In this document: one piece after another, positions 3,076 to 63,350 of the stretch | Position numbering within the stretch: the stretch's first letter is position 1 | Layout: the number at the start of each line of letters is the position of its first letter | Assembly (NCBI GenBank): GCA_041660005.1 | Contig: JBAZXG010000001.1 | Location: 4,253-68,252, forward strand | Reading direction: 5' to 3' | Origin: Patescibacteria group bacterium | GTDB lineage: Bacteria > Patescibacteriota > Patescibacteriia > GWA2-46-9 | Length of the DNA: 64,000 nt | Notes under the pieces: model-generated | Databases searched by the model: none | Seen by the model: only the letters and a program-made list of their open reading frames with translations | What the model was told of the DNA's origin: nothing | Made by a program: the position numbers and the translations under genes

Positions 3076-3149
3076 TGGCAGGAGCGGTAGGAATCGAACC
3101 TACGACGACCGATTTGGAGTCGGTCATGATGCCACTTCACCACGCTCCC
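3076..3149 (-). tRNA. tRNA-Trp (anticodon CCA)
   Basis: The reverse complement folds as a cloverleaf: acceptor GGGAGCG/CGCUCCU, anticodon stem ACCGA/UCGGU, loop CUCCAAA, T-loop GGTTCGATTCC, encoded CCA. Confidence 0.85.
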
Positions 3150-3811
3150 ATAGTTTGCGCTACTGCATGATATATAGATGCTAAACTTCTAGCAATACTA
3201 GCATCATTGTACCGTACCGATAAACAACCTTGATACCCATCTCGAACTCGCACACCAGTATTCGGCTTTTGGTATGATCTCATGAACTGCGAAATGGGTA
3301 TACCTGTTACGCGCGACCAAAACTGCAACTGTTCCTTTTCGTTATGATATCCGTGTAAATGAATAAGCGCATGGAGCTTACCATTGTCAATATTGTAACC
3401 GCGTCTAAGTGCAGTTAAAAAGGCGGACACCAAATCAGGATCAGAATTTGTGAACTGCAATGTTGACAAGTACCTTTTGCTGCCCTCACACCAAAAAATA
3501 AGAGCAGCGAATAACCGCCAAAAATCTTTATTCCTGGTGCCAAGATGAGCAGCTACCAGTTTTTTTGCTTCTTGCGACCGCTTCGCTTCTGCTTCATCGC
3601 GATGAACAGCTTGTAGGTGTCGACCCCGGGCACGACCCAGTGCTGAATTATTCAACAATTTATTTTTTGCAGCAATTGATAAGTCAACATCACGCACCCA
3701 GATATAGGCTGTGCTCTTAGCGATACTTAAAAGTTTCGCAATATCGTCGATTGATTTCCCGGACGCTCTTAACAGTTGGGACTCCTTCTTTTTATTGGTT
3801 GGGTATAACAT
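3137..3811 (-). CDS. HTH plus LAGLIDADG-like homing-endonuclease-like protein. It is a paralog of the 59996-60685 gene.
   Basis: N-terminal HTH (SIDDIAKLLSIAKSTAYIWV). Single LAGLIDADG-like motif LIFWCEGSK, aligned with LAILYAGEGSK in the paralog. The 3' end abuts or overlaps tRNA-Trp. Confidence 0.55.
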   Translation of the reverse strand: MLYPTNKKKESQLLRASGKSIDDIAKLLSIAKSTAYIWVRDVDLSIAAKNKLLNNSALGRARGRHLQAVHRDEAEAKRSQEAKKLVAAHLGTRNKDFWRLFAALIFWCEGSKRYLSTLQFTNSDPDLVSAFLTALRRGYNIDNGKLHALIHLHGYHNEKEQLQFWSRVTGIPISQFMRSYQKPNTGVRVRDGYQGCLSVRYNDASIARSLASIYHAVAQTMGAW

Positions 3812-4049: not shown

Positions 4050-4071
4050 AGGATAGAAAGTTAAAATCCTC

Positions 4072-4100
4072 CGCCAGAGGCGGATCCGCGGATTTGACTG
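4072..4100 (-). terminator. Double-hairpin element TCCGCC-AGAG-GCGGATCCGCGGA, a member of the GGCGGATCCGCC repeat family
   Basis: Lies downstream of the 4188-5078 gene. The same module recurs at about 10438-10468 and 46765-46797. Confidence 0.4.
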
Positions 4101-10416: not shown

Positions 10417-10437
10417 ACGATAATTAAGTAATCCGCA

Positions 10438-10468
10438 CTAGGCGGATCCGCCGTTGGCGGAAAAAACA
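10438..10468 (-). terminator. GGCGGATCCGCC double-hairpin element (TCCGC-ACTAG-GCGGATCCGCC-GTTG-GCGGA) downstream of aspS
   Basis: Two tandem GC hairpins followed by an A-run on the plus strand. Member of a 3-copy repeat family. Confidence 0.4.
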
Positions 10469-10481
10469 AAAAGCAAAAGAG

Positions 10482-11891
10482 CTACTTAATAAATTTGATG
10501 TGTAAATCCTTAAGCTGAGCATCGGCAAAAGAGCTCGGTGCACCCATCAGTAAGTCGCGAGCGTCTCCGGTTTTGGGGAACGGAATGACTTCGCGGATGT
10601 TCGGCTCGTTTGCAAGGAGCATAATAAGCCGGTCGAGACCCGGAGCAAAGCCGCCATGTGGAGGTGCACCATACTCAAAGGCTTCAAGCATGTGACCAAA
10701 TTTTTCCTGCATTCTTTCCTCGGAAAAACCAAGAATTTTAAATATGCGATCCTGTAATTCGCGTTCATGAATTCTAATAGATCCACTCGACAACTCGCAC
10801 CCATTCAAAACAAAATCATAAGACCAGGCGCGCACACGCAAAGGATCTGATTCTAAATATTTTTCATCTTCTGGATTCGGACGCGTAAAAGGATGGTGCG
10901 CGGCTTGCAACGCCCCTTGGCTATCTTTTTCAAACATTGGAAAATCAATCACCCAGCAAAAGGCAAGCTCCTTGGGGTTGGACTTGTCTTTCCTTAAGTC
11001 TGGTTTATCGCTACCATATTTTTCCATCGACTCAGCATAGGTTATGCGGGGCCAAGGCTTGGTCGTAATAGTATAACCACCGCCCTCTTCGTTTAAGGAA
11101 TCGATCAGCGTATTCATCATGGCCTCACCAAATTCCAAAATGTCGTCTTGCTCCACAAAACTCATTTCGATATCTAATTGCGTAAATTCTGGTTGGCGAT
11201 CGCCGCGCTGATCTTCGTCCCTGAAACACCGGGCAATTTGAAAATAGCGTTCTACACCGGCAACCATGAGTAACTGTTTAAACTGTTGCGGTGACTGCGG
11301 TAAAACATACCCCAGACCCGAATGAAGTCGCGACGGAACCATAAATTCTCGCGCACCTTCTGGGGTACCTTTTGTTAAAATTGGTGTTTCAACTTCCAAG
11401 AAATCTTGCCCTCGCAAATATCTCCTGAAAAAATCGATAATGCGGTCGCGCAAAATCAGATTAGTCTGCATTCTCTCTGTGCGGAGATCGAGATAGCGAT
11501 ATTTAAGCCGGACATCTTCGCTAACACCGCTCGAATCTTTATCTAGTTCAAATGGCGGCGTTTTGGCAGCGTTCAAAATAACTACTTTGCTCGCCAGGAC
11601 TTCTATGTTGCCAGTGGCTAAATTCGGGTTTTCATTTCCTGCTTTGCGCGCTTGAACGACGCCCACCACTTGCACGACGGTCTCTGGACGAATGGCTTCT
11701 TTTAAATTGTTACGCTCGCTTTCTTCAAAATCTTTCTCGCGAATGACCACCTGCACAAGATCACGCCGATTCCTGAGATCAATAAAAATGAGCGGCCCGT
11801 GGTCGCGACGGCGATGCACCCAACCGGCAAGTTTGACTGTTGTTCCTGGTTCAACACTGAGAAGCCCAGAAACGGTGTGCGTTCTTAGCAT
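10482..11891 (-). CDS. aspS: Aspartyl-tRNA synthetase, short archaeal/non-discriminating type (no GAD insertion)
   Basis: MLRTH..., FIDLR anticodon-binding OB fold, class II motif 2 FRDEDQRGDRQPEFTQLDIEMSF, motif 3 GGFAPGLDRLIMLL. Length is 469 aa. Confidence 0.85.
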   Translation of the reverse strand: MLRTHTVSGLLSVEPGTTVKLAGWVHRRRDHGPLIFIDLRNRRDLVQVVIREKDFEESERNNLKEAIRPETVVQVVGVVQARKAGNENPNLATGNIEVLASKVVILNAAKTPPFELDKDSSGVSEDVRLKYRYLDLRTERMQTNLILRDRIIDFFRRYLRGQDFLEVETPILTKGTPEGAREFMVPSRLHSGLGYVLPQSPQQFKQLLMVAGVERYFQIARCFRDEDQRGDRQPEFTQLDIEMSFVEQDDILEFGEAMMNTLIDSLNEEGGGYTITTKPWPRITYAESMEKYGSDKPDLRKDKSNPKELAFCWVIDFPMFEKDSQGALQAAHHPFTRPNPEDEKYLESDPLRVRAWSYDFVLNGCELSSGSIRIHERELQDRIFKILGFSEERMQEKFGHMLEAFEYGAPPHGGFAPGLDRLIMLLANEPNIREVIPFPKTGDARDLLMGAPSSFADAQLKDLHIKFIK

Positions 11892-12141
11892 AATAGCATT
11901 TATAGTACTAAAAAAAGGGACTTTGGTAAAGCGACGAGATTGGAAGATATGTTTAAAAAATACATCTAAAATACTTAATTAATGCTTGGGGCGGGTCGAT
12001 CATTGCTGATCTTCCCGCCCCACTGCGTCTACTGCTCGGCCGCCTCCTTTGGCCGAGACTTACTTCTTCTCATAAATTCAAAGACCCCGGCACCACTGTT
12101 AGTTTCAAGCAGTGCGGGGGTCTTCTGATTGGTGTGTCGTT

Positions 12142-30834: not shown

Positions 30835-31074
30835 ACGAATTCAACACCTAAATATGAATAAATTGATGCTTTGGCAAGCACCCTAATGCCTTATATGACG
30901 GTACGCTGTTTTATTTCTTACAGACCCTTACACACTTTGCTTAGTTTCTTCTCATCACGACGGCTAGTCAAGTATTGCGGAGTGTTTTTGGTTGTTAGCA
31001 TGAAAAAATTTATTACCGGGTATTTGAGTGAAGTTCCAATAGCAACTTGCACCTACGATCGACACCAGCGTCAA

Positions 31075-31112
31075 TTTACACATTTTTGCGCGTACGCGCA
31101 AAAATGTGTAAA
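31075..31112. promoter_or_regulatory. 38-bp perfect palindrome TTTACACATTTTTGCGCGT|ACGCGCAAAAATGTGTAAA upstream of the secreted-protein gene
   Basis: Seen directly in the sequence. A near-identical 40-bp palindrome at 59063-59102 keeps perfect symmetry through paired substitutions. Confidence 0.5.
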
Positions 31113-31248
31113 AATTCTAAAGTACGAAAGCGCTAAATAGTAATCAATGACCCCGCCCCAAAGGGGACGGGGTATGTAATGGTATTTTGTCTTCTGCAAT
31201 GGTAACCTCGCGGCAAGCCGACAAGGTATTGGCAAAAATAAAAGCTGC

Positions 31249-33327
31249 CTACTTCTTTGCCCGCTCCCCAACGATCGTTTCGGTAACGTTTCGAGGAACT
31301 TCAGAATAGTGGGCAAACTCCATGGAGTGGCTAGCGCGGCCCTGAGACATTGAGCGTAATTCCGTCGCGTAACCGAACATTTCAGCCAAAGGAACCAGTG
31401 CGTCAATAACCCGCATACCACCGCGTTCACGCATTTCCTGTACCTGTCCACGGCGTGCATTAACGTCTCCAATAACATCACCCATAAACTGCTCCGGAGT
31501 AATGATTTCTGTTTTCATCATCGGCTCCAAAAGTACAGGATTTGCGCGCTTACAACCTTCTTGGAAAGCCATCGATGCAGCGATTTTAAATGCCGCCTCA
31601 GAAGAGTCAACGTCGTGGTAAGAACCGTCATACACCGCAACACTGACGTCAATCATGGGGTACCCGGCAAGCACACCACGGTCTAAGGCCTCTTGTACGC
31701 CCTTACGCACGGCCGGAATGTATTCGCGAGGGATAGCGCCGCCTTTAACCTCGTCAACGAATTCGAACCCAGCGCCTTCTTTGCGAGGGCTAACGCGCAA
31801 CCAGCAGTGACCGTATTGTCCGCGTCCGCCAGATTGCTTAATGTATTTTCCTTCAGCTTCTGAAACTTTACGAATAGTCTCGCGATAGGCCACCTGTGGC
31901 TTACCAACGGTCGCTTCAACTTTAAACTCTCGCTTCATGCGGTCGACAATGATGTCGAGGTGCAATTCTCCCATACCCGAAATAATGGTCTGCCCAGTTT
32001 CTTCGTCGCTCCTGACCTTGAAGGTTGGGTCTTCTTCAGCCAATTTTTGTAGGGCAATACCCATTTTTTCTTGATCTGCCTTGGTTTTTGGTTCAACCGC
32101 AACGGAAATAACTGGTTCAGGGAAGGTAATCGATTCAAGCACAACGGGTCGCGCTGGATCACAAATGGTGTGGCCGGTAAAGGTGTTACCTAGCCCGACA
32201 GCCGCGGCAATGTCGCCTGCGTAAACCATGTCGACTTCTTCGCGACTATTGGCGTGCAAGCGCACGATGCGACCGATGCGCTCGCGTTCATCAGTAACCG
32301 TGTTTAACACATACGAACCCGACTTCAATGTTCCAGAGTAAACGCGGAAGAAACAAAGCTTGCCGACAAATGGGTCAATAGCAACCTTAAAGGCGAGCGC
32401 GGTAAAGGGCTCGCTGTCGTCAGCTGGAATCAAAACCTGTTCTTCGCTGTCTGGTATAGTCGCCATGACTGGCGGTACCTCAATTGGTGAAGGCAAATAA
32501 TCAACCACCGCATCAAGGAGCTGTTGCACACCCTTGTTCTTCAACGCTGAGCCGCACAGTACGGGAATAATAGTCTGGGCAATAGTCGCTTTGTGGAGCA
32601 CGCGCTTCAAATCAGCAAGCGACGGCTCAGTGCCGCCAAGGTACTGTTCCATCAACACTTCGTCTTGCTCAACAATGGCGTCAATGAGTTTCGCGCGGTA
32701 GGTTGCTACCTTTTCTTTCATGTCGTCTGGAATATCTCGTTCTTCAAATTTCGTTCCTAGTTCGTCCGTATAGAAAAAAGCTTTCTGTGTCAAAAGATCG
32801 ATAATTCCAAGAAAATTCTCCTCAGCGCCAATCGGTAGCTGAATGGGGTAGGCCAGAGGGTTCAATCGTTCGTGAATAGAAGCAAGGTCAGCATAAAAAT
32901 CCGCACCCGTACGATCCATTTTATTGATGAAGCAAATGCGCGGCACGTGGAATTTGTCTGCCTGGTGCCAAACTGTTTCAGACTGCGGTTCAACGCCGGC
33001 CACGCCGTCAAAAACGACGACACCGCCGTCTAACACGCGCAGCGACCGCTGTACCTCAACCGTAAAGTCGATGTGCCCGGGCGTGTCGATAATGTTGATG
33101 CGGTTGTCCTTCCAGAAACAGGTGGTAGCTGCAGCAGTAATGGTGATACCCCGCTCGCGCTCTTGCTCCATCCAGTCCATGGTCGCTTCACCCTCGTGCA
33201 CTTCGCCTATTTTGTGTTTTTTCCCAGTATAGAAAAGGATGCGTTCCGTCACCGTTGTCTTACCCGCATCAATGTGGGCGATGATACCGATGTTGCGTGT
33301 TTTTTCAAATGTATAATCGCGAGGCAT
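31249..33327 (-). CDS. fusA: Elongation factor G
   Basis: [25 protein letters not shown]. 692 aa. Confidence 0.95.
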
Positions 33328-33451
33328 AGATTAAGAATTTATGATAATCCCCACATTGATGCGGGAAGGGGTCGGTGAACCTGGGTTCCCGCGGCGGAAA
33401 TACCAAAACCGAGGGGTTGTGGAGAGCAGTGGCGGATGCCGCTGCGATGCG

Positions 33452-33510
33452 AAATGTGGGCGATGATACCGATGTTGCGCGTTTTTTCAAATGTATAATC
33501 GCGAGGCATA
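33452..33510 (-). repeat. 59-bp direct duplicate (1 mismatch) of the fusA ribosome-binding site and first 19 codons, about 180 bp upstream of the real start
   Basis: 33270-33328 versus 33452-33510 are near-identical. Inverted copy of fusA codons 17-22 at 33349-33364. Confidence 0.7.
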
Positions 33511-33617
33511 GTTTAATGCTTTAAGCTGTACGTTTTACGCTTTACGTTGTTTTACGTTGATTCTTATTTCACTAAATGAGCGCGCGTATAGCGTAGTACG
33601 TACTGCCATTGTCGCGC

Positions 33618-43144: not shown

Positions 43145-43663
43145 TCAACGACGAAGGCGTACCGCCCTCTGAACGTCGACCTCATGGACTGGCTTGCCGG
43201 TTTCGTCGACCTTCTGAAGGACGGCGATCACCGACATTTGTTTGATTACACCGTCTCGTTGGCGCTGAGTGAAGTACTCGACAGTACGACGATGCGCTCG
43301 TACGACTGCACCAAACATTGCATCTTGAGTCTGGTATCCGGACGCATGCCCCTTTCCGCAGGGAAAGTGGGCATGGAGTACGAGATGTTCCGCCCCCTTG
43401 ATGAGGGCCGACTCGAGAAGATCCTCGAGTAAATGAAATCGTCTTTGTTGTGTTCGCTGCTTTCCGTACCTAAAATCAACGAACTGTGGATCTAGAACAA
43501 GGCATCCCCCGTTCACGGAATTGAGATGTACATTTCTTGTGTACTTCCAGAGTGTCTCCAGAAGATCAGCCGAATGGCTGCCATCTCCGCACGCGGCCAG
43601 TACGACATGACCATCTCTCGGGAGCGTTCTCGCCCCTAGTGGCTTCAGATATCGTTGCTCCAC
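43145..43663 (-). CDS. Hypothetical protein on a GC-rich island
   Basis: 172-aa ORF in a roughly 60% GC segment. Imperfect hairpin at 43097-43140 downstream. Strand assignment is uncertain. Confidence 0.35.
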   Translation of the reverse strand: MEQRYLKPLGARTLPRDGHVVLAACGDGSHSADLLETLWKYTRNVHLNSVNGGCLVLDPQFVDFRYGKQRTQQRRFHLLEDLLESALIKGAEHLVLHAHFPCGKGHASGYQTQDAMFGAVVRAHRRTVEYFTQRQRDGVIKQMSVIAVLQKVDETGKPVHEVDVQRAVRLRR

Positions 43664-43994
43664 TTCCTCTTCTCCCCTTGCCGCATCTGGCGGCTAAAAA
43701 CTCGACGCGCACATCACGCGCCGGCTTGCAGCCGAGTTTACGCCTGCTTTTTAAAAATGTCAAGATAAAACAACCAATAATTCAAAAATCTCCTCCGTTG
43801 GGCGGAAAAACTTCAAGTCAAAAATTTCCACCAGTCGTTCGAGATCCTGAGAGGTTCTCTCGGACACTGAACGGAAAGCGAACTCGTCCTTACTAATAAA
43901 TTTGGGTGTGTCCCGACGTAAGGCCGAGATCCCGATTCAATTGATTTTATAAAGTAGGTAGCGTCGGGACAAAAGAGTAACAAACAGTCGCGAT

Positions 43995-44087
43995 GTCCCG
44001 TCTGACGGGACCAAGGACATTCATGTAGTTCTTGGTCAAAATTATTGCCGAATAGCATTTGTACCATAGTTCGAACTATAGTACAAA
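43995..44087. repeat. About 95-bp repeat module, left copy: CCCGTCTGACGGG hairpin, spacer, palindrome GTACCATAGTTCGAACTATAGTAC
   Basis: Homologous to 46838-46931 (about 70% identity, same orientation) and partly to 63300-63350. Confidence 0.6.
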
Positions 44088-44177
44088 ATAAAAAAACAGT
44101 GGCTTTGAAAGCGGTTTAAAAAATACTACTCATCATCCTTACATTCTCAAGTATGTAAGGATGAGAAAATTAATATT

Positions 44178-44735
44178 GTAATCCTTCAAGGTCTCTTTTT
44201 TCTACTCTTTCGACTATGCTCACAGCAGATTGCTTAGGAGAGATAGGATCATTTTTACCTTTCGTATAAATGGCAACCCTTCGACTACGCTCAGGGTTAT
44301 TGTTTCTTCCTTATACAAAATTTGAAATCCTACGCTACGCGTTGGTAATCCTTCAGCTACGTTCAGGATCATTTTTACCTTTCCTTGAGGAAAGGTAAAA
44401 ATGAAAAACCTCCCGGCGGGGAGGACAAAAAATTGATAAAAGCAAGCTTCACGTATTGGTCTCATTTTGGCTGAAGGCCAGTTGGGCGATTGCGATCATG
44501 TTCGGCATCGTTGTGAAAATCACGCCGAGCGGAATGAGGCAATTGTTCGCCGCCGGTGCCCGCACCGTACGACCACAGTCGTGCGGAATAAAGACTCCAT
44601 TGCACCCATGTTGTCCCAAAAGAGAATCCAATAATGTTGTGAAGCTGCTTGCCCATTGAAGGGCTCATTAAGTTTAACCCCGTGATAAAAAAAGTCAATA
44701 AATGATAAGAGTAATCCCTCGGCTACGTCGTTTTG
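44178..44735. repeat. Array of degenerate 17-20-bp direct repeats (consensus aatccTTCGACTACGCTCAGG) with interspersed hairpins, iteron-like
   Basis: Copies at about 44178, 44204, 44270, 44322, 44346 and 44711. GGATCATTTTTACCTTTC occurs twice. Confidence 0.45.
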
Positions 44736-45487: not shown

Positions 45488-45652
45488 GATTTTCCCTCCG
45501 GAAAATTTCCCTTTTCAGGGATGGTTGTGCCCATGAGGTCGGTCGCATCTGTTGGCGACAAACTCACATGAACCGATGAACCTAGCATAAATTGAGGGAA
45601 ATGTCAAGAATAAATGACAAAAATATTTGAAAAATCTTTTTTAAATTTAAAT

Positions 45653-45914
45653 TATAAACTCTTAACGTCCTCGGGCTGTGCCCTCGAGACTAGTTGTCCA
45701 CTTTCTTACTTGTCTAAGAAAATGGACGGAAAGAATGACACCCTCAGGACTCGGCTGGGGCATGACTGCACTCCGAAAACCGATAGTCGTGAACTCCCCG
45801 CCATACTTCTTCAGATGTAGGCGGGTCAAACAGCACGACCATTCCTTCGGTTCTCTCCGTTTGTCATTACCTACGCCGATCCTATGGGACTTTGCACTCC
45901 GCTCTGCCAAACCC
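45653..45914. repeat. About 260-bp interspersed element copy 1: terminal hairpin segment plus conserved core
   Basis: About 85% identical, in inverted orientation, to 63040-63250. Its 5' 80 bp is also found direct at 62823-62905. Confidence 0.6.
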
Positions 45915-46066
45915 TATTGTCGACCAAGGAGAACAAACATATGGCAAACAAAACGATTTCACAAATATTTTGACTTTCTGCAAGGTGACGCGTAGCATGC
46001 TGAATAGAAATATTTTTCAATAAGCGCTCAAATTGAAACGCCAACCTAAAATTTTACTCTAACAAT

Positions 46067-46579
46067 ATGGACGATTTACTGAATCAAATACAAAAAGGGC
46101 TTGATGCAAAATTATATTATCTTGCACTTTTTGCTGCCTTAGCAATACCAGATATCTGTGGTGCACTCGACTCGGAAAATGGTGAAGCCAGTCGTGATAA
46201 ATATATTGCATGGTTCGACGCTAACTTGAAAGAGTACTATGGTGACGAATTCGATGGAAAAATTTGTTATTTTTTTAGATGTTCTTTTTTGCATCAAGGA
46301 TCTTCTATCAAGCAGGAAAGCCCTTACGAAAGAATATTTTTTGCGGAACCTGGATATGGTCATAGTATGCATAATTGTACTTTTAGCAGGACAGGCGTTT
46401 CAAAAAAAGTTTTCTCATTAGATATTGATAAGTTTTGCAATGAAATGATTCAAGCATGTTCAAAATGGCAACAGAAAGTTAAAGACAATAAATTGTTTAA
46501 AAAACATTATGAAAACTTTATGAAACGATATCCCAATGGCCTCGAACCCTATATAAATGGAATACCCATAATTGGTTAA
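46067..46579 (+). CDS. Hypothetical AT-rich 170-aa protein with Rx4H (RCSFLH) HEPN-like motif
   Basis: Long ORF in about 33% GC DNA, which contrasts with its neighbours. Lys/Tyr/Phe-rich. One of only two plus-strand genes in the window; the other is rpmB. Confidence 0.5.
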   Translation: MDDLLNQIQKGLDAKLYYLALFAALAIPDICGALDSENGEASRDKYIAWFDANLKEYYGDEFDGKICYFFRCSFLHQGSSIKQESPYERIFFAEPGYGHSMHNCTFSRTGVSKKVFSLDIDKFCNEMIQACSKWQQKVKDNKLFKKHYENFMKRYPNGLEPYINGIPIIG

Positions 46580-46764
46580 TACCCTTTTTCACTCGGAGTC
46601 TGGATCTTAAAACCCATTGATGTTGTGTTGATGTGTTGTCCGGCGAAAGAAGCTGAAAAAAGTGACGGTTGTGTCTGACGAACGAGAACGTGAGAAGTTT
46701 AATTGTCACCAGCGTATGAAGACGAGCAACACCCAACACAAACACCACGGGGGTCATTTCCGCC

Positions 46765-46797
46765 GAAGGCGGATCCGCCTCTGGCGGACTTTCTCTG
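46765..46797. terminator. GGCGGATCCGCC double-hairpin element (TCCGCC-GAAG-GCGGATCCGCC-TCTG-GCGGA)
   Basis: Third copy of the repeat family, downstream of the 46067-46579 ORF. Confidence 0.4.
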
Positions 46798-46837
46798 CTA
46801 TCTAATCTTAGACAAGTAAGAAAAGTCACAACCTACA

Positions 46838-46931
46838 GCCCCGTCTGACGGGATCGAGGACGTTAACGTAGGTTTTGATAAAAAATTTTTACAAATAAAT
46901 TAGTACCATAGTCTAGACTATGGTACTAATT
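46838..46931. repeat. About 95-bp repeat module, right copy: CCCCGTCTGACGGGA hairpin plus 34-bp perfect palindrome AATTAGTACCATAGTCTAGACTATGGTACTAATT
   Basis: Direct repeat of 43995-44087. Confidence 0.6.
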
Positions 46932-46990
46932 TAAAACTTGTCTTTTAAAAAACTTTTCTTAAAGAAAATAAGAAAAGTTACAAATTTCTC

Positions 46991-47436: not shown

Positions 47437-47898
47437 TTATGTATCCTGGAGAACGCCTTCTGAACCCACGCTATGCTTGCCGCGATGACGTTTTCGCTCT
47501 GCAATGTGTAAGCGCGCAAGTGAACGCTGCAGCTCAGCAGCAGCATCAGTGTAGTGTTCAGTGTCAACACGTTCGGTCTCCATTATTTGCTTCGCACGTT
47601 CTTTAGCCGCTTTTGCTCTTTCGACATCAATTTCGTCAATGTGCTCGGCAGCGTCTGCCAAAATGATAACCTTGCTACCCGCTTGCACTTCGATAAAACC
47701 ACCCGCCACAAAAATTGATGTAATATCATTACCTCTTTTTATGGTTAGCTCCCCGGGCACGAGCGCGCTAACGAGCGGGATGTGATTTGGCAAAATAGTA
47801 ATTTCGCCGGTGGTCGTCGGCAGTGTTACCTGATCGACCGTCTCTTTATAAACGGTTCGCTCGGGAGTAGTGATTTCGAAATCAATCATAGTAATTAA

Positions 47899-47910
<12 letters not shown>
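47437..47910 (-). CDS. atpC: ATP synthase F1 epsilon subunit
   Basis: Beta-sandwich N-terminal (ITILPNHIPL...) followed by a helical C-terminus. Confidence 0.85.
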
Positions 47911-49830
<1,920 letters not shown>

Positions 49831-58943: not shown

Positions 58944-59062
58944 ATATTAGTTAGTAGTGTCAGAGACTTTAAGTATAGGCCAAGCTCACGATTTTGCAAT
59001 CAAGCGGTCGCTATTTTTCTTTTAGTTACGAACAATTTTAGCATTGAAGCTTCTCATTATCG

Positions 59063-59102
59063 TTTTACACAATTTTGTGCGTACGCACAAAATTGTGTAA
59101 AA
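59063..59102. promoter_or_regulatory. 40-bp perfect palindrome TTTTACACAATTTTGTGCGT|ACGCACAAAATTGTGTAAAA
   Basis: Paralog of 31075-31112. Differences between the copies are symmetric. Confidence 0.5.
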
Positions 59103-59107
59103 AATAA

Positions 59108-59620: not shown

Positions 59621-59873
59621 CTCAGGAAGAGTCTGCCCTTCGGCTCATTTCATTCGCTCAGGACACTTCGACTCAGGAAGAGTCATGGGCACTCGCCCCC
59701 TCGACTAAGTCGGTGTCGCTTACCTCGGCAAAATCCTCGGCATCTTCGACGGGACACTTCGACCTGTGGTGAACGTAGTCGAACCATTTATAGTGAACAA
59801 CGTCGAACCACTCAGGAAGAGTCTGCCCTTCGGCTCATTTCATTCGCTCAGGACACTTCGACTCAGGAAGAGT
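59621..59873. repeat. Two 64-bp direct repeats (59621-59684 and 59810-59873), each containing CTCAGGAAGAGTC inverted pairs. The second abuts the tRNA-Val 3' end.
   Basis: Exact repeat visible in the sequence. Confidence 0.6.
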
Positions 59874-59878
59874 CGAAG

Positions 59879-59955
59879 TGGTGGGCGGCAGAGGATTCGA
59901 ACCTCTGACCTTTTGCGTGTCGAGCAAACGCTCTAACCAACTGAGCTAGCCGCCC
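59879..59955 (-). tRNA. tRNA-Val (anticodon GAC). Position 33 is C.
   Basis: Reverse complement GGGCGGCUAGCUCAGUUGGUUAGAGC G UUUGC UCGACAC GCAAA ... GGUUCGAAUCCUCU GCCGCCCACCA. Confidence 0.8.
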
Positions 59956-59995: not shown

Positions 59996-60685
59996 TCAAG
60001 CTTTTTCAACGACGCTTTGCATATAGGAATTTGCCAACAAAACAAGTTTCCGCTGAATTGCTACATTACCACATCGAACATGACAAACGCCTTTATATGA
60101 ATCGTACGTCTTAGACCCTAAAGTACGGCGATCTATATTAACCTGTCTAAAACAGGATAAGGGCAAGGCAAGCTCTTTTGACCAGTACTTTTTCAACTGA
60201 CTTGGATTCTGATCCGCCCGCAAATATAATTCGCATCTCATTTTCTGGATGTCGACCTTATAAACAGTACGCAGTACTTGTACAAAAAATCTTAGAATTA
60301 AAGGATTGGAACTGCCGAGCGCTGTCTCCAAATTTTTCTTGGAACCTTCTCCTGCGTAGAGAATTGCCAATGTAAGCTCAAGAATAGAACGATTGTTAAC
60401 GGGCAGTGAAAGCAGTGTCGCATTCGCTTGTTGCCTGGCTTCTTCTAAACGTTTTAATTTATCGTTGTTATGCCATACGACTGCTTTTTTCCGTGCCGAC
60501 ACAAGAGCATCTTCCCAACGTTTATCTAATTTCTTTTTTTGAGATGGAGTCAACGATATACCCCTTAACCAACCGCTGAGAGTCGAGCGCGGTATAGCGA
60601 GTTTCTGCTCAATGGTACGTATCGACATACCTCGTTTTCTTAACTGTATTGCACGCCCTTTAAATTCAGTCCACTGTGATTTCAT
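59996..60685 (-). CDS. HTH plus LAGLIDADG-like homing-endonuclease-like protein, paralog of 3137-3811, immediately 5' of tRNA-Val
   Basis: MSIRTIEQKLAIPRSTLSGWL HTH. LAILYAGEGSK motif. Collinear alignment with the paralog across the C-terminal domain. Confidence 0.55.
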   Translation of the reverse strand: MKSQWTEFKGRAIQLRKRGMSIRTIEQKLAIPRSTLSGWLRGISLTPSQKKKLDKRWEDALVSARKKAVVWHNNDKLKRLEEARQQANATLLSLPVNNRSILELTLAILYAGEGSKKNLETALGSSNPLILRFFVQVLRTVYKVDIQKMRCELYLRADQNPSQLKKYWSKELALPLSCFRQVNIDRRTLGSKTYDSYKGVCHVRCGNVAIQRKLVLLANSYMQSVVEKA

Positions 60686-62674: not shown

Positions 62675-62822
62675 AACGTTATTCAGCTGTCAAAGGCCAG
62701 CCAACTTTGCCTAATTCTTGAAATTCGCACCGGCGAAACCTTATCAAAAAGTGAGGAAAGTTACAATGAAAAATAATCTGGCCATTAACATGGAGTGTTA
62801 CATCTATTTCGTTTATTTCTTT

Positions 62823-63250
62823 AAAAACTCATAACGTCCTCGGGCTGTGCCCTCGCGACTATTTGCCTACTTTCTTACTCGCCTAAGAAAGTAGACGGAA
62901 AGAACGGCGCCCCGCATCGACGCTCCTGGTCGGCAGCCATTCCGAAACGAACACGGCGGCAATGAACTTGCTACGCTGCAGACAGCATTGCCGCTCAATC
63001 GTGTTCGTTTCGTCTGTCTGCTCTCCCCGGTCGATGAGGGGGTTTGGCAGGAAGTGGAACAATCCCATAGGATCGGCGTCGGTAATGACCAGTGGAGAGA
63101 ACCGAAAGAATGGTCGTGCTGTTTGACCCTGAGTGAAGTCGAAGGGGAGTTCACGACCATCGGTTCTCGGAGTGCAGTCATACCCCAGCCGAGTCCTGAG
63201 GGCGGGCTTTCTTTCGTCTATTTCTTTGCCCGCACAAAGAAATAGACAAC
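62823..63250. repeat. Composite copy 2 of the ~260-bp element: direct terminal segment (62823-62905), a 150-bp unique segment, and an inverted full copy (63040-63250)
   Basis: Alignment to 45653-45914 in both orientations. Confidence 0.6.
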
Positions 63251-63320
63251 CGTCGGCCATGCTAATGGCCAGGTTAAAATTGAGCGATATAAAAAATTTG
63301 CTTAATTCTAACAAAAACTG

Positions 63321-63350
63321 TTTGTACCATAGTTCGAACTATGGTACAAA
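63321..63350. repeat. 30-bp perfect palindrome TTTGTACCATAGTTCGAACTATGGTACAAA, third member of the GTACCATAG family
   Basis: Exact palindrome in the sequence. Confidence 0.6.

Follow-up and report, generated by a model that had tools for sequence, protein, structure and literature searches.

A segment of about 260 bp with hairpin-bearing ends occurs at 45653-45914 and again, inverted, at 63040-63250 in a 64-kb stretch of the genome of an uncultivated, Uhrbacteria-like Patescibacteria group bacterium (64,000 nucleotides of contig JBAZXG010000001.1, hereafter the window). The question raised by this locus is what kind of element the segment belongs to. A preliminary description regarded it as either a MITE-like non-autonomous element or a family of structured RNA genes. 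Patescibacteria genomes are tiny and streamlined, and to our knowledge almost nothing is known of their repeats, mobile DNA and non-coding RNAs. The family is found where the chromosome is most conserved, between the operons for ATP synthase and ribosomal proteins. Should the repeats be mobile, they would represent a new type of gene-gain cassette in Patescibacteria genomes; if they act as RNAs, they would form a new structured RNA class.

Architecture of the repeat elements

Reading of the sequence identifies the ~260-bp segment as one unit of a larger mirror-symmetric element. From 5' to 3' on the folded strand, a unit includes an imperfect long hairpin of ~140 nt (the core), which is closed by CCC/GGG and has a variable apical stem; an AU-rich hairpin of 13 bp (hp2); a linker with the conserved ACAAC..GUC (ACAAC..GTC in DNA); a GC-rich hairpin of 6-8 bp (hp1); and the tail GAGGACGTTA (GAGGACGUUA as RNA). 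The units form inverted pairs with the hp1 ends facing outwards, and the direction of the folded strand is always outwards, from the interior of the element to its end. Element 2 (62829-63272, ~445 bp) is an empty pair of two units placed back to back, with 23 bp between the cores. Element 1 (45660-46868, 1.2 kb) is a pair enclosing a promoter-like site and a gene for a 170-aa, possibly HEPN-like protein. A third end module (43913-44030) is solitary and has no core. The units are as follows.

45660-45958, minus strand: unit U1L, the first copy of the preliminary description; 5' extension, core at 45888-45741, hp2 at 45727-45696, linker ACAACTAGTC, hp1 at 45688-45670, tail GAGGACGTTAAGA
46590-46868, plus strand: unit U1R; diverged core at 46613-46751, twin hairpins TCCGCC..GGCGGA at 46759-46788, hp2 remnant at 46806-46823, hp1 at 46839-46852, tail GAGGACGTTAACG
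62829-63040, minus strand: unit U2L; hp1 at 62839-62857, hp2 at 62865-62896, diverged core at 63040-62911; its end is 86% identical to that of U1L
63064-63272, plus strand: unit U2R, the inverted segment of the preliminary description; core at 63064-63202, hp2' at 63214-63249, hp1' at 63255-63270
43913-44030, plus strand: end module U3R; hairpin at 43913-43973, linker AACAAACAGTC, hp1 at 43996-44012, tail AAGGACATTCA

The covariance model R1 was built from the two close core copies and run unfiltered on both strands of the window (128 kb searched). It returns four cores, each on the strand that reads towards the end of its element and at the position predicted from the end hairpins; no core was returned at U3R.

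45888-45741, minus strand: core of U1L, 178 bits
63064-63202, plus strand: core of U2R, 170 bits
63040-62911, minus strand: core of U2L, 29.2 bits, E 5e-4, full length
46613-46751, plus strand: core of U1R, 17.1 bits with a marginal E of 0.14, full length, in the expected place and on the expected strand

The inverted-pair layout, the cores at 63040-62911 and 46613-46751, the enclosed gene at 46067-46579, the end module at 43913-44030 and the palindromes at the right ends (see below) were not mentioned in the preliminary description. In addition, the region 45914-45958, which matches 63015-63050 in inverted orientation at 78%, resembles the 5' portion of another core.

Similarity between the units

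BLASTN within the 64-kb window aligns 45720-45958 with the opposite strand of 63223-62997 (79.4% identity over 243 columns, E 3.5e-50). The earlier value of about 85% for the inverted copies is a fair one, and the similarity runs ~45 bp beyond the limits first given, to 45958 and 62997. Identity is 93% in the sub-block 45823-45889 versus 63063-63129 and 78% in the sub-block 45693-45799 versus 63144-63250. The direct copy of the first ~90 bp is confirmed (45652-45743 versus 62821-62912, 86%, E 3e-25, BLASTN within the window). The fragment of the terminal hairpin originally placed at 46811-46830 corresponds to 46806-46832, a stretch with 85% complementarity to 45693-45719 that includes 18 exact nt. 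The window has exactly three occurrences of the 11-mer TAACGTCCTCG, at 45663 and 62832 on the plus strand and at 46855 on the minus strand. Its inverted occurrence at 46855, together with the match at 46806-46832, identifies the fragment as the right end of the 1.2-kb element and not a stray piece.

The likeness among the units is mosaic: U1L resembles U2R in the core (91% over the 148 columns of the central hairpin) and U2L at the end (86%), and the end of U1R resembles that of U3R (74%; 43997-44094 versus 46840-46936, E 4e-11). The hp1 and hp2 of U2R are unlike those of U1L in sequence, with pairing kept. The right unit of the second copy is the counterpart of the left unit of the first, and the left end of the second copy is the counterpart of the left end of the first. 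The second copy is not a rearranged snap-back, as had been proposed, because both elements have the same two-unit mirror layout. It had also been described as bounded by terminal inverted repeats; the order of hp1 and hp2 is indeed mirrored at its two ends, but little sequence is common to both. At the two ends of element 2 only the hairpin architecture is mirrored; element 1 has inverted repeats of 11 nt (exact) and 27 nt (85%).

Six-frame (chimeric) translations of both cores, compared with 5.8 billion proteins, gave no match, which indicates that the repeat region is non-coding. The preliminary description stated that the ORFs predicted inside the element are not conserved between the copies; given their DNA identity, the copies have several reading frames open in common.

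Folding and strand asymmetry

The minus strand of U1L folds at -118.2 kcal/mol (z -5.5) with 14 G-U pairs, compared with -91.2 kcal/mol and 3 G-U pairs for the plus strand. For element 2 as a whole z is -7.5 relative to shuffled sequence, and for the four cores it ranges from -3.6 to -6.1, with U1R at -3.6. The strong folds of U1L and element 2 support the initial view of the repeats as structured. For the consensus of the two close cores the folding energy is -66 kcal/mol, with several G-U pairs, on the strand that is minus in the first copy and plus in the second, and -46 kcal/mol, with zero G-U pairs, on the opposite strand. All five one-sided substitutions between these two cores keep pairing on the strand that bears the G-U pairs (chance ~0.03 by a rough binomial estimate). 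Replication-linked mutation bias cannot explain the strand pattern, since the two copies sit on opposite genomic strands.

As regards covariation, proposed at the outset as a check, pairing is kept through compensatory change across the units. For hp2 in the five units, 88.5% of cells are paired, versus 40-50% with partners slid, and 5 of 13 pairs are changed on both sides. Between the cores of U2R and U2L, 20 of 45 pairs are changed on both sides and 96.5% are paired; this alignment is model-fitted and so partly circular, and under the model the comparison shows shared architecture rather than independent covariation. Two unpaired motifs beside the variable apical stem are common to all four cores, UGCUGUYUG on the 5' side and AGUUCA on the 3' side. 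The stems vary yet stay paired, and the G-U pairs are confined to one strand, so that selection acts on the sequence as a folded single strand. It follows that the functional form of the units is single-stranded, whether RNA or DNA.

These features could be explained by stand-alone structured RNA genes of ~250-300 nt, transcribed outwards and acting in trans (for instance as protein-binding RNAs), their pairing into elements being incidental. Such genes would account for the G-U pairs on one strand and the strand-compatible one-sided changes (5/5), and for the conserved unpaired motifs beside covarying stems in the four cores; an apical stem of variable length is typical of RNA families, and another clearly conserved ncRNA gene lies in the same island. 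However, the cores of element 2 stand head to head, 23 bp apart, leaving no room for promoters, and upstream of the cores no consensus promoter was found except one inside a hairpin. Moreover, hp1 has no adjoining U-tract, there are relatives that retain the neighbouring ncRNA but have no units, and Rfam has no match. We consider this explanation rather unlikely. The RNA gene family suggested originally is thus upheld as regards strong structure and compensatory change, but no convincing promoter or terminator defines a discrete RNA gene.

Genomic context and distribution in relatives

The window represents core chromosome, with a ribosomal-protein operon, EF-Tu and EF-G, ATP synthase and a nuo/hyf-like cluster, and the minus strand carries nearly all genes. 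Both elements are intergenic, placed between core genes, and have AT-rich flanks. Among the ORFs scanned in the 64 kb there is no transposase, integrase, reverse transcriptase, TnpB or HUH gene.

At 30-50 nt beyond each right end there is a perfect palindrome of 24-30 nt, GTACCATAGT-NNNN-ACTATGGTAC, which occurs nowhere else in the window.

46900-46930: perfect palindrome TTAGTACCATAGTCTAGACTATGGTACTAA, ~30 nt outside U1R
63321-63350: perfect palindrome TTTGTACCATAGTTCGAACTATGGTACAAA, ~50 nt outside U2R, followed on the minus strand by a T-run
44058-44087: third copy, perfect palindrome TTTGTACCATAGTTCGAACTATAGTACAAA, beyond U3R

The palindrome GTACCATAGTTCGAACTATGGTAC was also found in the relative L108 (12648-12674; 100% over 27 nt), with nothing adjoining, although AtpC identity to this relative is only 66%. 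In all four cases, three in the window and one in L108, a T-run follows the palindrome on the gene strand, so that it looks like the terminator of the upstream gene. The palindrome could be a conserved terminator or a protein-binding site. It had no match in viral contigs. The right flanks of the elements stay homologous out to the palindrome; the likeness of the left flanks (promoter-like TTGACATTTCCCTCA..TAGGTT) is marginal, its score being reached by 14 of 500 shuffles. Sitting after terminator-like palindromes, the units occupy the gap between a terminator and the next promoter. Inspection of the edges of elements 1 and 2 revealed no consistent direct or boundary repeat, and the search for target-site duplications, suggested with the original proposal, was negative at both elements.

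The closest relative is L106, a Ca. Uhrbacteria MAG; AtpC of the window is 74% identical to that of a Ca. Uhrbacteria MAG. The relatives share the order atp operon, atpC, a variable region of 2-4 kb, an M50 protease, S12/S7 and EF-G. A single diverged unit is present in L106; its parts follow the same order (hp1, TGTAGGTTGT, hp2 and a shorter core-like region), and a different, zero-loop palindrome precedes it. A second candidate at 13850-14085 of L106 gave no convincing alignment. The units are absent from L108 and L110-L116, which are most of the relatives read in detail and have the same atp-M50-S12 synteny. R1 found no core in the loci of six relatives, and BLAST of L112-L116 found no unit. 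This distribution points to gain or loss of the units within this lineage. Retrieval of GTDB genomes through pyrF gave only relatives of at most 47% identity (43% for the closest full-length CPR matches), useless for synteny, and exact look-ups of two flanking proteins for strain variants of the loci returned nothing on record.

A 172-aa ORF adjoining U3R (43145-43663, minus strand) is conserved in relatives (L108 10697-11266, 34%, E 9e-15) and contains an H-x-x-C-G motif; a neighbouring 146-aa gene in the same position in L115 and L116 is called Pfam Pro_CA_2.

Beyond the relatives, exact-pattern scans with the conserved core blocks gave no matches in viral contigs or in GTDB genomes; the 41 loci returned from JGI metagenomes were all chance 18-mer matches. 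BLASTN in its 'distant' setting against phage and plasmid collections gave no match, and an origin as phage or plasmid DNA was set aside on that ground. With Rfam 15 covariance models, among them those of group I and II introns, 6S, HEARO/omega RNAs and ribozymes, only tRNAs reach the gathering score in the window, and nothing matches the cores at E <= 10.

The position of the units would suit purely cis-acting modules of transcript ends, in the manner of REP/BIME, that is, terminator-like hairpin stacks copied by recombination with no mobility machinery. The units always lie between the terminator-like palindrome of a gene and the next promoter, and U1R is immediately 3' of the enclosed ORF and on the same strand. 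A hairpin of the hp2 type, AACTTTTCTTA..TAAGAAAAGTT (46950-46980), followed by a T-run, is found directly after a 144-aa gene, and other genes are followed by the twin TCCGCC hairpins too, at 10432-10463 and 4070-4089. On the other hand, a terminator would be much simpler than a 140-nt core with conserved loops, half of the units oppose the direction of all adjoining genes, and the relatives do without units. Overall, a role confined to transcript ends seems doubtful.

The gene enclosed by element 1

The segment enclosed by element 1 includes the following features.

45970-45998, plus strand: promoter-like site TTGACT-17-TAGCAT before the enclosed gene, a consensus match only (9 of 12 positions)
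46067-46579, plus strand: enclosed gene, 170 aa, HEPN-like as a lead; among the very few plus-strand genes in the window

The product is recorded as a hypothetical protein of a 'Patescibacteria group bacterium' MAG. It belongs to a widespread family of ~165 aa, with 73 matches in many phyla. Loci of its homologues elsewhere (L043-L050) have no units, so that gene and units are not a fixed pair. In the family R71 is invariant and H76 nearly so, forming Rx4H; the HEPN superfamily is characterized by the helical HEPN fold and an Rx4-6H motif. Foldseek, PDB sequence, Pfam, NCBIfam and PADLOC searches with the protein were negative, and the HEPN-like assignment should be read as a lead only. An imperfect direct repeat, AAACCC(T)ATTG (45910-45925 and 46608-46625), brackets the promoter and gene segment and may be the junction at which the gene was inserted into a core.

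An independent assembly, contig L001 of 926 bp (Logan SRR18595301), is 100% identical to 45860-46785 of the window and has the same orientation. Its two breaks fall within the core and within the twin hairpins, as might be expected if the sample contained further near-identical copies or strain variants.

It is very improbable that element 1 is an invertible segment (inverton), in which a site-specific recombinase would use the inverted ends as crossover sites and so flip the promoter and gene between them. The inverted repeats of element 1 (11 nt exact, 27 nt 85%) do flank a promoter and a gene, and the neighbouring ncRNA is oriented oppositely relative to atpC in L106 and in the window; but the window has no recombinase gene, element 2 has nothing to invert, one independent contig (L001) has the same orientation, and structural covariation is not expected for duplex crossover sites.

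Comparison with known systems

MITEs are non-coding, shorter than ~600 bp, and have sequence-conserved terminal inverted repeats, a target-site duplication, many near-identical copies and a related autonomous IS. Mobile insertion cassettes (MICs) are exemplified by MIC231 of Bacillus cereus. Element 2, at ~445 bp and with no homologue, has the length and non-coding nature of a MITE; element 1, at 1.2 kb and with a gene, does not and resembles a MIC. Like MITEs and MICs, the elements are non-autonomous: element 2 is non-coding, and element 1 has a passenger gene but no transposase. They also share with them inverted ends, intergenic location, several copies in both orientations and folding into long hairpins. 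In contrast to MITEs and MICs, there is no target-site duplication, the copies are old and diverged, and the parent IS is not known; the ends are conserved in structure rather than sequence, and the 'inverted repeat' is a whole multi-hairpin unit of 200-300 bp. The MITE-like or RNA-family proposal stands in describing a multi-copy, non-coding, interspersed family with inverted ends; but there is no target-site duplication and no transposase in the 64 kb, and as near-identical copies are lacking too, the family does not count as an established MITE.

Correia and ERIC-type repeats of neisserial and enterobacterial genomes are intergenic imperfect palindromes of 100-150 nt that are co-transcribed and form long RNA hairpins affecting transcript fate. 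The present units are likewise intergenic imperfect palindromes folding as long hairpins, but those repeats are single palindromes with sequence-conserved terminal inverted repeats and, in Correia, a TA duplication, whereas here the units are paired and have three hairpins and conserved loops.

REPINs and BIMEs are inverted doublets of palindromic modules associated with RAYT transposases; the REPs themselves are ~20-40 nt long, have a conserved 5' tetranucleotide and occur in tens to hundreds of copies (PMC3116915, PMC3337134). Common to REPINs/BIMEs and the present family are inverted doublets that fold as single strands, mosaic combinations of intergenic modules, persistence within a lineage and a presumed trans-acting enzyme. 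The differences are that the units here are 200-300 nt long with three hairpins, that there are five in 64 kb, and that a gene can be enclosed. No RAYT (Y1 HUH) gene was found in the 64-kb window.

Palindrome-associated elements (PATEs) derived from IS200/IS605 are similar in having subterminal hairpins recognised as single strands and no target duplication, and one hp1 has an extrahelical base. However, PATE ends lie on the same strand, whereas the TAACGTCCTCG end motifs are inverted here, and the window has no TnpA or TnpB. An IS200/IS605 end pair was rejected because its end motifs and hairpins would have to be other than inverted.

Several further identities were considered and rejected. 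Integron attC sites are 57-141 nt long, with R''/R' core sites RYYYAAC / GTTRRRY and IntI nearby; here the ends tCTTAAC / GTTAAcg are imperfect, the 'site' would span 0.45-1.2 kb and no integrase is present in the window. A retron is an msr-msd ncRNA adjoining a reverse transcriptase gene, and no reverse transcriptase was found among the window ORFs scanned. The template and variable repeats of a DGR do not fit, as the differences between copies are not adenine-specific. There is no Rfam signal for 6S or SRP RNA. In an IS110 bridge RNA, as a programmable guide, the opposite of the pattern seen here would hold, in which loops are conserved and stems vary. Group I introns interrupt a tRNA, rRNA or protein gene and have a P3-P9 catalytic core; here no gene is split (tRNA or other), the flanks are AT-rich and intergenic, and Intron_gpI does not match even at E <= 10. 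Group I introns are common in Patescibacteria (PMC13011429).

The general kind to which the repeats belong, structured intergenic repeats, is already known. The family itself matches no described one and departs in defining features from each that was considered.

Possible origin and function of the units

Our tentative preference is for a lineage-restricted, non-autonomous cassette composed of mosaic structured modules, MITE/MIC-like or REPIN/BIME-like. The empty pair would be the MITE kind and the loaded pair the MIC kind of such a cassette, which may owe its spread or reshuffling to recombination, or to an enzyme that is encoded elsewhere and recognises the folded ends. Transcribed from the inside out, as the 3' part of the mRNA of the enclosed gene, the stacked hairpins might serve as stop or 3'-protection structures, and we speculate that the outward hairpin stacks insulate neighbouring housekeeping genes; hp1 is not followed by a canonical U-tract. 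We infer both the mobility and the function of the units. Against the cassette, old diverged copies with compensatory change fit long-term function better than recent transposition, and the two ends of one element share little sequence and so are not classical terminal inverted repeats. The known units number about five in the 64-kb window, which is part of a contig of roughly 245 kb, and one in L106. By analogy with REP elements, which are both mobile and functional in RNA, the readings as a mobile cassette, as RNA genes and as cis-acting modules would overlap.

A further possibility, to which we assign a low probability, is that the units, as structured RNA or as folded single-stranded DNA, form an undescribed class and have a specific partner protein. 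The units might then be recognition or guide modules of a mobile or defence system of CPR bacteria, whose paired form captures genes such as the HEPN-like nuclease candidate, and the loops UGCUGUYUG and AGUUCA would be the protein-binding site.

It is highly unlikely that the repeats are a neutral local segmental or inverted duplication, functionless and drifting, for although only two close core copies are present in the window and searches of public collections gave none, the four cores and five end modules keep their pairing through two-sided changes, the substitution pattern is strand-specific and a diverged unit is present in another species (L106). In its plainest form, two copies with no covariation, a segmental duplication is excluded by the further cores and ends and by the kept pairing.

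Additional features of the locus

A candidate ncRNA of ~260 nt is located at 44400-44670 on the minus strand, with a promoter-like site TTGACT-16-TAAACT at 44698-44671 and a terminator at 44424-44409. Copies were found in L106 (11712-12000, minus strand), L108 (13462-13750, plus strand) and L110 (~11640-11900, plus strand), including relatives without repeat units; over 237 nt the candidate shares 79% identity with the Ca. Uhrbacteria CG10 MAG (E 3.5e-49). For three species, RNAalifold predicts a multi-branched structure of 78 pairs, 14 of them with compensatory changes. The candidate matches no Rfam family at the gathering score.

A second family of perfect, zero-loop palindromes of 40-42 bp, TTTACACA(A)TTTTGyGCGTACGC..., is intergenic at 31074-31113 and 59062-59103, one copy following EF-G and the other close to tRNA-Val. 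Another small intergenic repeat family is formed by the twin hairpin module TCCGCC-GAAG-GGCGGA / TCCGCC-TCTG-GGCGGA (46759-46788, 10432-10463 and 4070-4089).

Two paralogous-looking ORFs of ~225 aa on the minus strand lie beside tRNA genes, 3137-3811 beside tRNA-Trp (3076-3149) and 59996-60685 beside tRNA-Val (59879-59955). An N-terminal HTH with weak Pfam HTH_23/HTH_28 matches is common to the two, and 59996-60685 also has a LAGLIDADG-like 'LYAGEGS' motif; they may be homing-endonuclease-like genes. Other repeats in the window are an 85-bp tandem duplication between atpC and atpD (47894-48063), a 64-nt exact repeat adjoining tRNA-Val (59621-59684 and 59811-59874), and a 71-nt repeat of 93% identity around the start of EF-G (33271-33341 and 33453-33523).
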